DNA of 36,515 bases from an uncultured Flavobacteriaceae bacterium (GTDB lineage Bacteria > Bacteroidota > Bacteroidia > Flavobacteriales > Flavobacteriaceae), in NCBI GenBank assembly GCA_964510745.1, contig CAZECB010000001.1, positions 1 to 36,515 on the forward strand. The letters run 5' to 3'. The notes under the pieces were generated by a model. The model was not told the origin of the DNA and made no database searches. It was given only the letters and a program-made list of their open reading frames with translations. Made by a program: the position numbers and the translations under genes. Below are positions 4,617-34,775 of this stretch, piece by piece (positions within the stretch are counted from its first letter, which is position 1; the number at the start of each line of letters is the position of its first letter).

Positions 4617-4681
4617 TGTCATCCTGAACTTGATTCAGGATCTCATCAATCAAAGATTAAAGGTTTCTATCTACATAGAAA
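4617..4681. repeat. REP-like palindromes in the trpD-trpC spacer
   Basis: TGTC-ATCCTGAA-cttga-TTCAGGAT-CT (4617-4643) starts immediately after the trpD stop; second hairpin TTTCTAT-ctac-ATAGAAA (4664-4681). Confidence 0.75.
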
Positions 4682-4688
4682 AGTAAAC

Positions 4689-5474
4689 ATGAACATATTA
4701 GATAAAATAGTAATAGATAAACGTAAAGAAGTTGCTTTAAAAAAAGCATTAATCCCTACATCACAATTAGAACAATCCATACTGTTTGAACGTAATACAA
4801 TCTCTTTAGCAAAAAAATTAAGAACTAGCAATACAGGTATTATTGCAGAACATAAACGCAGGTCGCCTTCAAAATCTGTAATCAATCAAAGTTTAAATGT
4901 TCAAGATGTAGCAAAAGGTTATGAAGACGCTGGTGTTTGCGGCATGTCAGTTTTAACAGACGGAAAGTATTTTGGAGGCTCTTTAGACGATTTAGTTATT
5001 GCTAGAGCTAGTAGTAATTTACCATTATTACGAAAAGAGTTTATTATAGATGAGTATCAAATTATTGAAGCAAAAGCTTATGGAGCTGATGTAATTTTAC
5101 TAATTGCTGCTATTTTGAGCAGAGATAAAATCAAACAGTTTTCAGAATTAGCAAAGCGTTTAAATTTAGACGTTTTATTAGAAGTTCATGACATAGAAGA
5201 ATTACATAAATCCATAATGCCAAGTTTGGATATGCTAGGTGTTAATAATCGAGATTTAAAAACATTTGACGTTAGTACGGAAACTAGTAAAGTATTAAGC
5301 AAGTTAATCCCCAATGATTTTATAAAAGTTTCTGAAAGTGGAATTTCAAACATTGAAACTATTAAAAAGTTACAACCTTACGGTTATCAAGGGTTTTTAA
5401 TTGGTGAAAATTTCATGAAAACTGATAATGCGGGGGAAAGTGCTAATGAGTTTATCAAAAAACTAGAATCGTGA
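4689..5474 (+). CDS. trpC: Indole-3-glycerol phosphate synthase
   Basis: IIAEHKRRSPSK, SVLTD..YFGGS, LRKEFII, GVNNRDL, SESGI. Confidence 0.97.
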   Translation: MNILDKIVIDKRKEVALKKALIPTSQLEQSILFERNTISLAKKLRTSNTGIIAEHKRRSPSKSVINQSLNVQDVAKGYEDAGVCGMSVLTDGKYFGGSLDDLVIARASSNLPLLRKEFIIDEYQIIEAKAYGADVILLIAAILSRDKIKQFSELAKRLNLDVLLEVHDIEELHKSIMPSLDMLGVNNRDLKTFDVSTETSKVLSKLIPNDFIKVSESGISNIETIKKLQPYGYQGFLIGENFMKTDNAGESANEFIKKLES

Positions 5475-6124
5475 AGCTAAAAGTTTGTGGAATGAAATAT
5501 CAAGATAATATGAATCAAGTTGCAGCATTGCAACCCGATTATCTTGGGTTTATATTTTATGAAAAATCATCACGTAATGTAGAGTCTATTTTTTCTGATC
5601 TACCAAGTAATACTAAAAAAACAGGTGTATTCGTAAATTCTGGCTTAGAATTTATTATCAATAAAATAAATACATTTCAATTAGAAGCAGTACAATTACA
5701 CGGCAATGAATCACCTGAGTTCTGTACTGATTTAAAACATCATTACGAGGAACAAAGTGATGGAACAATTGAAATTATCAAAGTATTCTCTATAAAAGAT
5801 AATTTTGATTTTTCAGTATTAGAGCCTTATGAATTTGTTTGTGATTATTTTTTATTCGATACCAAAGGAAAACAACCAGGAGGTAATGGATATGTATTTG
5901 ATTGGAATGTTCTAAAAAAATACCCATCAACCAAACCTTATTTTTTAAGTGGAGGTATTGGAGTTGATGAAATTGAACAGTTAAAAGAATTTTTAAATAG
6001 TCCTGAATCAAAATATTGCTATGCCATAGATGTGAATAGTAAATTTGAAATTGAAGCAGGGTTAAAAAATATAGAGCAGTTAAAAGAGTTTAAAAAAAGC
6101 GTCATTACTAGCGTAGCAAAGTAA
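5471..6124 (+). CDS. trpF: Phosphoribosylanthranilate isomerase, with REP-derived internal and C-terminal residues
   Basis: KVCGM, GFIFY..SSR, VQLHG.E, LFDT, GGNG..FDW, LSGG, DVNSKFE; GTGA overlap with trpC. Confidence 0.95.
   Translation: MKLKVCGMKYQDNMNQVAALQPDYLGFIFYEKSSRNVESIFSDLPSNTKKTGVFVNSGLEFIINKINTFQLEAVQLHGNESPEFCTDLKHHYEEQSDGTIEIIKVFSIKDNFDFSVLEPYEFVCDYFLFDTKGKQPGGNGYVFDWNVLKKYPSTKPYFLSGGIGVDEIEQLKEFLNSPESKYCYAIDVNSKFEIEAGLKNIEQLKEFKKSVITSVAK
5738..5770 (+). repeat. REP-like half element in frame within trpF (encodes HHYEEQSDGTI)
   Basis: CATCATTACGAGGAACAAAGTGATGGAACAATT resembles the left arms at 6100 (CGTCATTACTAG) and 7373 (CGTCATTCCGAACGCAGTGAAGGAATC). Confidence 0.65.
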
Positions 6125-6177
6125 TTTCTTAATAAGAAGCAGATTGTCACAACTTTTTTCAAAAGCCTCGTAATGAC
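6101..6177. repeat. 77-bp REP-like palindromic element spanning the trpF stop and the trpF-trpB spacer
   Basis: Terminal inverted repeat GTCATTAC...GTAATGAC; internal CAGATTGTCAC (6140-6150) is shared with the element at 7374. Confidence 0.85.
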
Positions 6178-6190
6178 AACAAAAAATAAT

Positions 6191-7372
6191 ATGAGTTACA
6201 ACATCAACAATAAAGGGTATTACGGTGAATTTGGGGGAGCATATATACCTGAAATGTTATATCCAAATGTAGAAGAATTACGTCAAAATTATCTAAAAGT
6301 AATGGCAGAGTCTTCCTTTCAAGAAGAGTTCAATCAGTTATTAAAAGATTATGTCGGGAGACCTTCCCCTCTCTACTATGCTAAACGATTAAGCGAAACT
6401 TATAACACTAAGGTTTATCTAAAACGAGAAGATCTTAACCATACTGGTGCTCATAAAGTTAATAATACTATTGGGCAAATCCTTATGGCCAAACGTTTAG
6501 GGAAATCTCGTATTATAGCTGAAACTGGTGCTGGACAGCACGGTGTAGCGACAGCAACTGTTTGTGCTTTAATGGGGTTGGAATGCATTGTATATATGGG
6601 AGAGATTGATATTGCTCGTCAAGCTCCAAATGTAGCTCGTATGAAAATGTTAGGCGCAACTGTAATTCCAGCAACATCAGGAAGTAAAACGCTTAAAGAT
6701 GCCACTAATGAAGCGATTCGTGATTGGATTAACAACCCTGTAAACACACATTACATTATTGGAAGTGTAGTAGGGCCACATCCCTATCCAGATATGGTGG
6801 CAAAATTTCAGTCTATTGTTTCAGGAGAAATAAAATGGCAACTAAAAGAAAAAGAAGGTACTGACACACCTAATCATGTGATTGCCTGTGTAGGAGGTGG
6901 TAGCAATGCTGCTGGTGCGTTTTATCATTTTTTAGATGATGAACGTGTAAATTTAATTGCTGTAGAAGCTGCTGGAAAAGGTGTTCATTCTGGAGAAAGT
7001 GCTGCAACTTCTATTTTAGGAAAAGAAGGGATTATCCATGGAAGTAAAACCTTATTAATGCAAACTAATGATGGACAAATTACTGAGCCCTATTCTATTT
7101 CGGCGGGATTAGATTATCCAGGAGTTGGCCCAATGCATGCCAATTTATATACAACTAAACGTGCAGAATTTATTGCTATTACTGATGATGATGCCATGGA
7201 AGCTGGGATAGAGTTAAGTAAATTAGAAGGTATTATTCCTGCTATTGAAACCTCTCATGCGTTAGCGGTATTTAAATACAAAACGTTTAAACCAGATGAT
7301 ATTGTCATCATGAATTTATCAGGACGTGGTGATAAAGATTTACAAAATTATATTGATTATTTTAAGTTATAA
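6191..7372 (+). CDS. trpB: Tryptophan synthase beta subunit
   Basis: KREDLNHTGAHK (PLP lysine), AETGAGQHG, CVGGGSNA, SAGLDYPG, NLSGRGDKD; the ATG at 6173 is part of the repeat, so 6191 is preferred. Confidence 0.98.
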   Translation: MSYNINNKGYYGEFGGAYIPEMLYPNVEELRQNYLKVMAESSFQEEFNQLLKDYVGRPSPLYYAKRLSETYNTKVYLKREDLNHTGAHKVNNTIGQILMAKRLGKSRIIAETGAGQHGVATATVCALMGLECIVYMGEIDIARQAPNVARMKMLGATVIPATSGSKTLKDATNEAIRDWINNPVNTHYIIGSVVGPHPYPDMVAKFQSIVSGEIKWQLKEKEGTDTPNHVIACVGGGSNAAGAFYHFLDDERVNLIAVEAAGKGVHSGESAATSILGKEGIIHGSKTLLMQTNDGQITEPYSISAGLDYPGVGPMHANLYTTKRAEFIAITDDDAMEAGIELSKLEGIIPAIETSHALAVFKYKTFKPDDIVIMNLSGRGDKDLQNYIDYFKL

Positions 7373-7373
7373 C

Positions 7374-7459
7374 GTCATTCCGAACGCAGTGAAGGAATCT
7401 TATTAATTTTTCTAAAATTCAAACAGATTGTCACGGCTTTAAAAAAGTCACACAATGAC
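7374..7459. repeat. 86-bp REP-like palindromic element filling the trpB-trpA spacer
   Basis: GTCATT...AATGAC termini; left arm GTCATTCCGAACGCAGTGAAGGAATCT; CAGATTGTCAC at 7424-7434. Confidence 0.85.
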
Positions 7460-7472
7460 AAAACAAAATATT

Positions 7473-12564: not shown

Positions 12565-13866
12565 ATGAAGAATAAAAAACACTTAAAAATTATAGATATA
12601 ATAGGTATTGTTCTAATATTAATTGGAACAGGTATGGTTTTTGTTGCTAATGATTCACCTTATCATAGTATCTTTCAATTAGTCCTTGCTTTTGGATTAG
12701 TAGTTAATATTTTCTCTTGGAGAATAAGAAAGCAAGCAATAAAAAGCTCGATTAAAAATAAGACTCTAATTCTAGCCTTGTTTTTCTCATCATTTGGTGT
12801 AATGGCTCAAGATTATTCGAAACAAATCGAAGCTTTTACTAAAAGTTTTGCTGATAAAAATACCAAAGCTCTAGCGCCTTATATGAGTGCTAGTTTACAG
12901 TTTGGAAAAATACCCGCTGCTAATACATCTGCTATTATGAAGAATATCGTGACAAATCTTCCAAAATTAAATAGTATGGCTATTATAGAAAGTGAAGAAA
13001 GAAAAGCAAAAGTAGCGTATGATTTTGTTGGGTTTGGAAAAAGTGAATCCTTCATTCATTTTGATGCTGAAGGAAAAATAATAAAGATACAATTGGTAGA
13101 AGATTTAATCAATCAAGAAGCCGAAGCTCGTAGGCAACAAAAAGTACCTTTACCTACGCCTGGAGCATTAGGAAATAAATATAGTTCAACACAAGTTGAA
13201 TTTCCTGCAAGAGATGGACTCGTTATTAGTGGAAACCTTTATGAAATTGATAAAAACAAATCTATTATTCTGCTAATGCATCAAGCAGGCTATAACCGTA
13301 TGGAATATGCCGATATAGCACCTAAGTTAAACGAATTAGGATACAATTGTTTAGCAATAGATTTACGTTCTGGCGGATTCTTTGCAGGAAAACCAAATAA
13401 CACCAATACCCGAGCTATTGAAAAAGGCTTACAGCCCGAGATGATAGATGCGCAACAAGATGTTGCTACTGCAATAGATTATTTACATAATAAGTACAAT
13501 CAAAACATTATTGTTTTGGGAAGTTCTTTTTCATCTAGTTTAGCACTCTTAGAAGGATACAATAATTCTAAAGTAAAAGCTATTATAGGTTTTAGTCCTG
13601 GAGATTATTTTGGAGATATAATGCCTTCATTGTCTAGTGTGTTCTCAAAAACAGAAAAGCCATATTTAGTGACTTCTTCTAAGACAGAATCTGAAACTTT
13701 AAAAGTTTTAATAGGTAATTCTCAGTTAAAAGAAAACCAACTGCAATTTATTCCTACATCTAACGGATTTCACGGGTCAAGAGCACTTTGGGAAGGTCAA
13801 GAGGGTGCAGAAGAATATTGGCAAGCGGTTAAAACGTTTTTAATAACCATAAAAAAGAACATTTAA
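12565..13866 (+). CDS. Alpha/beta hydrolase with an N-terminal 2-TM module and an internal signal-like segment
   Basis: LLMHQAG, GYNCLAIDLR..G, nucleophile elbow GSSFS, C-terminal FHGS histidine. Confidence 0.85.
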   Translation: MKNKKHLKIIDIIGIVLILIGTGMVFVANDSPYHSIFQLVLAFGLVVNIFSWRIRKQAIKSSIKNKTLILALFFSSFGVMAQDYSKQIEAFTKSFADKNTKALAPYMSASLQFGKIPAANTSAIMKNIVTNLPKLNSMAIIESEERKAKVAYDFVGFGKSESFIHFDAEGKIIKIQLVEDLINQEAEARRQQKVPLPTPGALGNKYSSTQVEFPARDGLVISGNLYEIDKNKSIILLMHQAGYNRMEYADIAPKLNELGYNCLAIDLRSGGFFAGKPNNTNTRAIEKGLQPEMIDAQQDVATAIDYLHNKYNQNIIVLGSSFSSSLALLEGYNNSKVKAIIGFSPGDYFGDIMPSLSSVFSKTEKPYLVTSSKTESETLKVLIGNSQLKENQLQFIPTSNGFHGSRALWEGQEGAEEYWQAVKTFLITIKKNI

Positions 13867-28503: not shown

Positions 28504-29283
28504 ATGAAATTACACAAAGTACTAATATTAATAACTTTTATCTCCTCGATATCAGTAAAAGCACAAGACTACTCAAAACAGTTTGAAGCATTCCAAAAAT
28601 CTATTGAGTCAAAAAATATAGTCGACCTCCAACCCTTTATAAGTTCGGAAATGGCTATTCCTCCATTGTTTACAAAGGAACAATTAACTCCAGAACTATT
28701 AGAACGAGTATTAAAGGATGTATTTGGGAGAGTTTCCTCAGTTTCCATGAAGGATACTCAAAATGGAGAAATTATGGTTTTCTATGATTTTAAAGATGAA
28801 AACACAAAGGACAGAACTTCTTCTATTCTTTTAGATTCGGAAGGAAAAATTAAAGAGATTAAAATCATAGCTGCTCTTATTAATGAAGAAAGAGAGAAAA
28901 CAGAAAGTAAGGATGCAGAACAACCTATTGCTGATGAGTTCACTAAAAAATACCTAGCAAAAAAAGTAGAATTCGCAACATCGGATAACAGAATAGTTGT
29001 AGGGAATTTATATGATATAGGATTAAATAAACCTGTAATATTATTAGGTCATCAAGCTGGCTCTAATAAGTATGAATACGCTGATATTGCTCCTAAATTA
29101 AATGCTATGGGATATAATGCTTTAGCTATAGATTTAACTGGAGGAGGAAAATTTGCTGCTCACGATAATGAAACATTGAACAGAGGAACAGATGTAAGTA
29201 GTGACAGACAACGTATCCAAAGAAGAACAGGACAAGAAATGAATGCTGCAGTGGATTATTTATACAAAAAATCGGACTTCTAA
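28504..29283 (+). pseudogene. C-terminally truncated paralog of the 12565 alpha/beta hydrolase
   Basis: Shares AQDYSKQ.EAF, GNLY, HQAG.N..EYADIAPKLN..GYN.LAIDL; stops at AVDYLYKK-SDF*, before the catalytic Ser elbow. Confidence 0.75.
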
Positions 29284-34055: not shown

Positions 34056-34775
34056 TCAAAAAAAATCGCGATACTGCATCACTCTAAAATCAAACGTATT
34101 AAACTTAGGGTTTTTAGCTTTTAACTGCTTATATAATGGCATACTGCCTATAGAAATATTTGCTGCGCCTGATCCAGAGGTTAGAGATACGGTTTTGATT
34201 ATACGTTTGTCATTCTTGTAAAAGTTAGGCGATTGAGGAATCTCATAATTAGATTCTTCATTTCGTTCTGAATGACATAAAGTGAATTGATGAATTCGAG
34301 GTACTTCTTTACTCACTAATTCTAGTTTAATATTATAATCTTTAATGTGTTTTCTGAAAAAATATTCTGGTCCATTTTTACTGTTTCCTCCAGTAAACAA
34401 TAAGGTTTCAATACTTGGGTATTGTTTTAAATAGCCAATTACATCACGCAATTTAATATGTTTCATACCTAAATCAGAAGCATTTACTTTCTCACGTTCT
34501 GCACTTTCAACAATATCACAAATACCTATTTTTTGTTTGATTAAGAATTGTTTACGTTCTTCAATCGCTTCTTGAGAATTATCATAACGTAAATTTAAGT
34601 TATAAATAGCATCTATAATTTTCCATAGTTTTCCATTTCTACTACCATAGCAAAAGTTCACATCATCTACTTTTAAATCTCTAGTTGTGAATCTAGGTGG
34701 TGGTAACGTACCAACAATTAATTTTGTACTATTGTTTTGAATGAATGGTGCGTATGGATGTTTGTGTTTGAACAT
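34056..34775 (-). CDS. Uracil-DNA glycosylase superfamily (MUG-like) protein carrying an in-frame repeat insertion
   Basis: HPY.PF, LIVGTLPP, FCYGS..G.LW, GICDIV, ASD, LLFTG, L.SGSGAAN. Confidence 0.85.
   Translation of the reverse strand: MFKHKHPYAPFIQNNSTKLIVGTLPPPRFTTRDLKVDDVNFCYGSRNGKLWKIIDAIYNLNLRYDNSQEAIEERKQFLIKQKIGICDIVESAEREKVNASDLGMKHIKLRDVIGYLKQYPSIETLLFTGGNSKNGPEYFFRKHIKDYNIKLELVSKEVPRIHQFTLCHSERNEESNYEIPQSPNFYKNDKRIIKTVSLTSGSGAANISIGSMPLYKQLKAKNPKFNTFDFRVMQYRDFF
34208..34277. repeat. Complete REP-like palindromic element in frame inside the UDG gene
   Basis: TGTCATTC...GAATGACA termini and inner stem TGAGGAATCT-cataatt-AGATTCTTCA; 34209-34277 = 23 codons, CHSERNEESNYEIPQSPNFYKND. 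Confidence 0.85.

Follow-up and report, generated by a model that had tools for sequence, protein, structure and literature searches.

One internal loop of a DNA repair enzyme of the Flavobacteriaceae has very probably been rewritten time and again by short hairpin repeats, the encoded peptide being a passenger. The window, a stretch of 36,515 nucleotides from an uncultured member of this family (GenBank GCA_964510745.1, contig CAZECB010000001.1; the genome is called G000 below), contains a gene from the superfamily of uracil-DNA glycosylases (UDG) that carries a 70-bp repeat element in this loop (Table 1). Two unlike repeat units make up the element, the site turns over among relatives, the peptide drifts neutrally, and the same pair of repeats lies beside a small GIY-YIG nuclease gene of the same genome.

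Table 1. Coordinates of the features discussed, counted from the first nucleotide of the window.
Feature	Position	Strand	Evidence
UDG-superfamily glycosylase gene, 239 aa, nearest to family 6 / Mug-like proteins	34056..34775	-	homolog names, fold match, TIGR04274 46 bits
SGSGAAN motif, far end of the strand following the insert	34158..34178	-	translation, ortholog alignment, AlphaFold2 model
Head-to-head dimer of TGTC-tagged hairpin repeats, 70 bp, in frame	34208..34277	-	sequence, independent contig
Left arm, 27-nt subtype, encodes CHSERNEES; subtype also flanks the Ssn-like gene on contig C137	34251..34277	-	
Inter-arm spacer, 7 nt	34244..34250	-	
Right arm, 36-nt partner subtype in decayed form; on the gene strand it encodes the EIPQS...ND part	34208..34243	+	alignment to nuclease-flanking dimers
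Sibling repeat dimer, 28-nt subtype, directly past the trpB-like stop codon	7373..7460	+	
Repeat of another subtype, intergenic, with a perfect 8-bp stem and a 5-nt loop, directly past the trpD-like stop codon	4617..4643	+	
Decayed in-frame repeat within the trpF-like gene, second rewritten loop of the window	5738..5765	+	
Repeat dimer from which the trpF-like gene takes its final 7 codons and its stop	6100..6179	+	

Anatomy of the element

The element is bounded by TGTCATTC...GAATGACA; its terminal stem measures 8 bp and its inner stem 10 bp with one mismatch, and ends and stems were recovered where the first-pass annotation of this DNA had reported a palindromic repeat. As single-stranded DNA it folds with z = -3.6, an equally good fold occurring in one of 200 shuffles. 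The idea of one complete palindrome, however, has to be given up: two different units of 27 and 36 nt stand head to head, separated by 7 nt. The TGTC tag opens both arms, and an unpaired CGTC or TGTC tag at one end characterizes the superfamily of CGTC-tagged REPs. Members of this superfamily are expected to have a stem of 8-9 bp that opens with A-T pairs, and a loop of 4-5 nt; the left arm keeps the geometry 8+5+8, yet, as read from the sequence, only five of its eight stem positions pair, whereas the sibling at 4617 has eight of eight. The left arm has its nearest siblings on contigs C137, C55 and C88, each with four differences in 27 nt. The copy at 7373, with which the arm had first been matched, is related (84% over 32 nt) but belongs to the 28-nt subtype. 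For the right arm, a search of the assembly found no close sibling left.

An assembly artefact is ruled out because a contig from a second study spans the whole element without a single difference. Within the open reading frame, positions 34209-34277 are translated as CHSERNEESNYEIPQSPNFYKND. The 23 in-frame codons described previously stand, but the net gain over insert-free orthologs of 217 aa is 22 residues and not 23.

Host gene and predicted protein

Homologs of the protein are named uracil-DNA glycosylase family proteins and come from Flavobacteriaceae. A Foldseek search with the predicted model returned 2L3F as the top match (E 3e-4), followed by TDG, UdgX and MUG, which agrees with the earlier assignment of the gene to the UDG family. 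Sequence-based searches gave less: the TIGR04274 model (UDG family 6, hypoxanthine DNA glycosylase) scored 46 bits, below its cut-off of 80; Pfam assigned no family to the protein with or without the insert; and a sequence search of the PDB yielded 2L3F alone, with E 0.41.

In the AlphaFold2 model, residues 169-188 have pLDDT below 50 and lie between the strands 160-167 and 190-197. The insert is therefore predicted to lengthen a disordered beta-hairpin loop by a net 22 residues, and the surface loop that had been anticipated appears in the model as this low-confidence segment between two strands. Because the SGSGAAN motif, which we take to be equivalent to UDG motif 2, comes after the second strand, the insert is probably located on the side of the protein away from it. 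Residues 45-49 read SRNGK, a Gly variant; 131 of 178 orthologs as well as the closest relatives have Asn. This variant may reflect recombination or a different substrate.

Variation of the loop among orthologs

The ortholog set comprises 190 loci, of which 179 are distinct and 178 have a readable loop. Among these 178 genes the loop, with 5 to 55 codons, is the sole internal block of variable length; each of the remaining internal blocks is equally long in all of them, and the last block differs in one gene. Fully empty loops of five codons were found 20 times, mostly in proteins of 217 aa, in a sample that over-represents filled loops because the first 110 loci were chosen by similarity to the filled query. 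The net insert of 22 residues in the window follows from these 217-aa proteins, and they provide the bounded insertion that an ortholog alignment had been expected to reveal.

A hairpin detector found a sense-strand repeat in 45 of the 178 loops (9.4 kb), compared with two matches in 112.7 kb of other coding DNA; on the antisense strand it marked three loops. In 41 of the 45 repeat-bearing loops the repeat starts 0, 7, 9 or 10 bases past the Phe codon, and two frames are in use, giving peptides of the type VI../VR.. or CH... The loop contents include monomers, dimers, nested copies and decayed relics. Only two positions are kept: the second residue of the loop is L, I, M, V or F, and the final one Arg or Lys, each in 177 of 178 genes. 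Stop codons were considered as the sole reason why monomers sit tag-first on the sense strand and were discarded, since reversed units often have an open frame.

A conserved, non-palindromic segment is ruled out by the lengths, the empty alleles and the repeat types of the ortholog loops. An equally long, alignable segment in distant orthologs, which would have spoken for it, was not observed; the most distant family members sampled mostly have short loops without a repeat. The proposal that the repeat creates new peptide loops in flavobacterial enzymes holds in so far as in-frame copies also occur in other enzymes of this genome, but what is lengthened is an existing turn rather than a new loop.

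The main rival to rewriting of a resident repeat is that every filled loop arose separately, by insertion into an empty allele: the loop would be struck often just because no other site is tolerant, and it may offer a TGTC-like target; the mobiliser may be a transposase acting in trans, and no resident repeat would be needed. The most frequent loop length fits this well: 14 codons, seen in 35 of the 178 genes, equals exactly the empty loop of five plus nine. It is harder to reconcile with the proline at loop position 3, which most loops with the repeat at offset 9 retain and which is lacking in 19 of the 20 five-codon loops. We consider independent insertion unlikely on the whole, and return to it where further evidence bears on it.

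A single ancient insertion, with later point mutations, deletions and swapping of loop patches among species through ordinary homologous recombination, would require no repeat-specific enzyme. The outer clade of 37 genes, in which no repeat was detected, accords with such a history. Against it, the repeat subtypes in the loops differ through compensated changes in their stems and match separate intergenic families, identical 28-nt units with unrelated tails occur in different genera (loci L041 and L056), and two reading frames are used. As the sole cause it is largely refuted, and as a full account we find it scarcely probable.

Turnover within one genus

The family-wide gene tree is poorly resolved, with 73 of 175 branches open. 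The label tests on it are weak for this reason (19 and 27 changes, where shuffled labels average 20.4 and 28.2), and a genus tree was used in its place. We chose the genus of genome G275, which is tied to a named Winogradskyella record and in which 55 of 97 genomes were matched. From 50 matched and four named loci, 49 entered the tree, five being dropped as unparsed or duplicate; the loop itself was excluded from tree building.

With 43 classed genes in eight loop states, the genus tree needs 20 changes (18-21 over 300 bootstrap trees), where the classes were assigned by hand from the loop sequence after a quick tree had already been viewed, six of the 49 rows stayed unclassed, and automatic classes proved too noisy. 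The states are more clustered than shuffled labels, for which the mean is 25.8 changes. AU tests nevertheless reject a single clade for all four classes tested: empty (p 2e-4), CHPEL (1e-6), VIAS (6e-57) and CHSER (0.03). Two empty alleles are nested in a filled clade with support of 99/99 and 96/96, and hence indicate loss of the repeat. In a clade of nine genes with support of 100/100, two 17-codon states in different frames are interleaved.

The clustering of states is the phylogenetic signal that one ancient insertion would leave, and the basal members of the genus tree are empty, as independent new insertions would have it. Part of the scatter is explained by exchange between species or by lineage sorting: two species (L319 and L331) have a loop tail in common across the gene tree, although the gene of L319 is nearer to those of L328 and L329, which also fits the patch exchange invoked with an ancient insertion. 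A mosaic scan of L319 revealed no clear tract beyond the loop.

Among six close pairs, codon differences in the loop are 25 non-synonymous to 11 synonymous, compared with 79 to 216 elsewhere (p 1e-6). The peptide is thus unconstrained; it drifts neutrally, and no new function has been shown for it. Selection on the hairpin or the peptide – through mRNA structure, through a nuclease-binding site protecting the gene during transformation, or through a loop that tunes repair activity – is very unlikely in the light of this near-neutral ratio, the many visibly decayed loops, the 20 empty ones, the decay of the window's own arms and the fact that enzymes outside DNA repair are struck likewise. What can be said for it is that four-fold sites within subtype groups are 0.67-0.89 identical in the repeat and 0.35-0.46 in the rest of the gene, a comparison that is partly circular because the groups were defined by the repeat stem. 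In addition, some in-gene copies are pristine and have no genomic siblings, and many intragenic REPs were described in repair genes with speculation on altered activity (Di Nocera et al., PMC3733652, as far as the sections considered here go).

Other repeats and other rewritten loops

A census of G000 found 45 matches compared with 8-12 in five shuffles, i.e. about 35 above background; it superseded a looser and too noisy hairpin census, in which 171 matches faced 137-145 in shuffles. The majority of clear copies are found outside open reading frames of at least 100 aa, and head-to-head dimers are present among them, as in the dispersed dimers of CGTC-tagged REPs. The suggested scan for repeat-like peptides, performed in six frames, proved productive: the carriers among 1859 open reading frames of at least 150 aa are three, the UDG gene and the genes of GluRS (gltX) and LeuRS (leuS), with a fourth gene, presumably trpF, added later by eye. 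Such rarity within one genome, when the same few loops are struck in many lineages, argues against independent new insertions.

Among the best 30 leuS loci from 44 genomes, one site holds repeats, of several subtypes, in 15, is empty in 13 and is ambiguous in two; a second site is also variable. Where the leuS repeat begins with a Val codon, all 13 empty alleles have Val as well. Tag and host sequence thus coincide, which again favours insertion at a TGTC-like target. In gltX, three of 29 parsed loci contain a repeat and one a relic. The corresponding trpF-like segments of relatives (27 parsed) comprise seven clear repeats of several kinds, 14 empty segments and six that are decayed or unclear.

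Small GIY-YIG nuclease genes beside the repeats

G000 contains four small GIY-YIG genes, two of them with internal stops. The intact gene on contig C137 (G000:C137:36-326) encodes 96 aa, matches PF01541 with E 6e-17 and is preceded by both unit types of the UDG insert. Its single-domain product contains YVY, LY and REKQ, i.e. the two tyrosines and the glutamate by which the family is recognized, and aligns with a Neisseria homolog from residue 11 on. It is 38% identical over 79 aa to the product of a gonococcal gene that has NTS repeats on either side, with E 4e-7 in a collection search and 1e-15 in pairwise comparison, where the family is defined by cd10448 or by a tblastn E < 1e-10 to meningococcal SsnA. 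A single-sequence fold of this nuclease was unusable (pLDDT 44).

The genes with internal stops (G000:C109:2812-3048 and C389:1137-1361) include one, on C109, that is surrounded by repeats of another subtype. In another genome, around ten repeat dimers stand on both sides of a C137-type gene at a period near 128 bp (L279, G127:C11:791001-792682), an arrangement that resembles a BIME array around a RAYT gene. Two further subtypes each adjoin more distant GIY-YIG genes in pairs that were hand-picked as illustrations; they suggest a pairing of subtype with nuclease clade.

The window's subtype lies within 600 nt of a C137-type gene in nine of the 13 loci in which the gene was located, as opposed to none of four for more distant genes. 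Of 44 genomes, 15 contain the C137-type clade, for which the threshold was E below 1e-30: all five that have the window's subtype in the loop and ten of the 39 others (p 0.003, the genomes being kin and not independent). The link consists of co-occurrence among kin, from which we infer a role of the nuclease in loop rewriting.

Loop carriers are richer in genomic copies of their own subtype for two of the three subtypes tested (p 0.004 and 0.016; third p 0.71). For another subtype, the in-gene copy is the only match within two mismatches in three of four carrier genomes, and the fourth has one more. Refreshment from abundant resident copies was therefore rejected as a general rule, as two subtypes lend it no support. 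The complete genome G079, of the same genus, has no C137-type match and no copy of three tested subtypes; its UDG loop contains a decayed monomer of another subtype, and its gltX and leuS loops are empty.

A Y1 (RAYT) transposase, PF01797, was not found in G000 or in four of five relatives, and the fifth relative has one candidate match. The negative result in five of six genomes counts against new insertion by a transposase, with G000 as weak evidence since this assembly is 65.6% complete. The published SRM search string has no match in the element, in any loop or in G000, which counts against a role of Ssn-like nucleases.

A possible mechanism

That Ssn-like nucleases drive the rewriting by overwriting a resident repeat is our preferred reading, to which we give an even chance. 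According to this model, an Ssn-like GIY-YIG nuclease would nick single-stranded DNA beside the resident repeat, a few bases 5' of the tag, by analogy with Neisseria SsnA. A new subtype could then be written, a second copy nested or the repeat removed when the DNA recombines, or switches template, with an array flanking a nuclease gene or with incoming DNA. Selection would keep a product only if it is in frame and its second loop residue is hydrophobic, so that frame and strand act as filters, and the surviving copy would subsequently decay as a passenger. The first seeding of an empty loop falls outside what this nick-and-rewrite model explains here.

More tentatively, Ssn-like GIY-YIG nucleases could be the missing mobilisers of CGTC-tagged REPs, each clade spreading and overwriting its own subtype. 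The seeded loops of UDG, LeuRS, GluRS and TrpF would then be self-renewing cassettes that sample peptides in two frames, a GIY-YIG counterpart of the REPIN-RAYT system that acts on proteins. This broader proposal is possible, though we would sooner doubt it than rely on it.

Comparison with known systems

In-frame palindromes are already in print, as is the overwriting of extragenic REPINs. The intragenic CGTC-tagged REPs of Di Nocera et al. (2013, PMC3733652) resemble the present element in the TGTC/CGTC tag, the head-to-head dimers, the 20-30 encoded residues, the choice of repair genes and tRNA synthetases, and the absence of a flanking tyrosine transposase. According to the parts of that article considered here, the same gene class is mostly struck at different sites, with the exception of recB of two Xanthomonas species, and no mobiliser is named; a term search of its supplements gave no uracil glycosylase entry. 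In contrast, one loop here takes many subtypes in two frames, and the subtypes pair with GIY-YIG genes.

The meningococcal nuclease SsnA has been shown to bind hairpins of this kind in single-stranded form, to cleave a few bases upstream and to modulate transformation (Chenal et al. 2025, PMC11893778); the sections covered report no insertion activity. Ssn nucleases and their NTS/SRM repeats share with our case the small single-domain GIY-YIG gene, the flanking tagged hairpins and the C after the palindrome, and Supplementary Data 4 of that paper includes SsnA homologs from Winogradskyella, Psychroserpens and Flavivirga. Unlike those SRMs, the flavobacterial subtypes fail the published string, though they flank a small GIY-YIG gene. 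Within the same sections, 2% of NTS are placed within genes, in-frame peptides and site turnover go unreported, and mobility is raised as a hypothesis only.

In the REPORTH preprint (10.1101/2024.10.14.618302, in the portion considered), conserved sites carry different repeat types that track the resident enzyme, and the authors suggest overwriting of REPINs by RAYTs. That system concerns extragenic sites, HUH transposases and a single species, whereas ours concerns coding loops across genera and GIY-YIG genes, with the RAYT search as described above. The palindromic elements of Rickettsia (Ogata et al., via PMC3733652 and PMC3184786, in the passages considered) are likewise palindromic DNA in frame in housekeeping enzymes. 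The classic unit measures 105-146 bp (PMC3184786); the present element, at 70 bp, is shorter, belongs to a different phylum and occupies a site that turns over.

In the literature covered, which takes in few subscription papers and only parts of the supplements, we came across no case of a single coding loop that different tagged repeats rewrite again and again, nor, within the same scope, of GIY-YIG-linked in-frame repeats in Flavobacteriaceae. What appears to be new is the combination, in enzyme loops, of in-frame repeats and recurrent rewriting with a candidate GIY-YIG driver. CGTC-tagged REPs have been described without a dedicated transposase, and Ssn nucleases with the spread of repeats as a hypothesis only; since the locus combines a matched repeat subtype with a candidate enzyme, and since dozens of natural rewriting outcomes are on record at this single site, the mobiliser question becomes directly testable. 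Such rewriting is a recurrent rather than a one-off route to variation in protein loops and supplies natural maps of insertion-tolerant sites in essential enzymes. The Ssn tool set may also gain from the flavobacterial pairs of subtype and nuclease that escape the published motif.

Further observations

Four repeats of the element's family lie in the stretch 4617-7460, which we take from its sequence to be a trp-like operon with trpD, trpF and trpB: one after trpD, one inside trpF, one over the trpF stop and one after trpB. In another genome, two trpF-like copies are adjacent (L363, G267:C1:180600-182238), of which one holds a repeat dimer in its loop and the other is empty. Two genomes (L207 and L208) have in-frame repeats at the same position of a gene for 3-hydroxyacyl-CoA dehydrogenase, one of them with two subtypes in tandem, and a further in-frame repeat lies within an MmeI-like restriction-modification gene (L210). 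Apart from the repeats, the window contains two diverged paralogous stretches, 13054-13493 and 28825-29270, which are 71-72% alike and about 15.8 kb apart.
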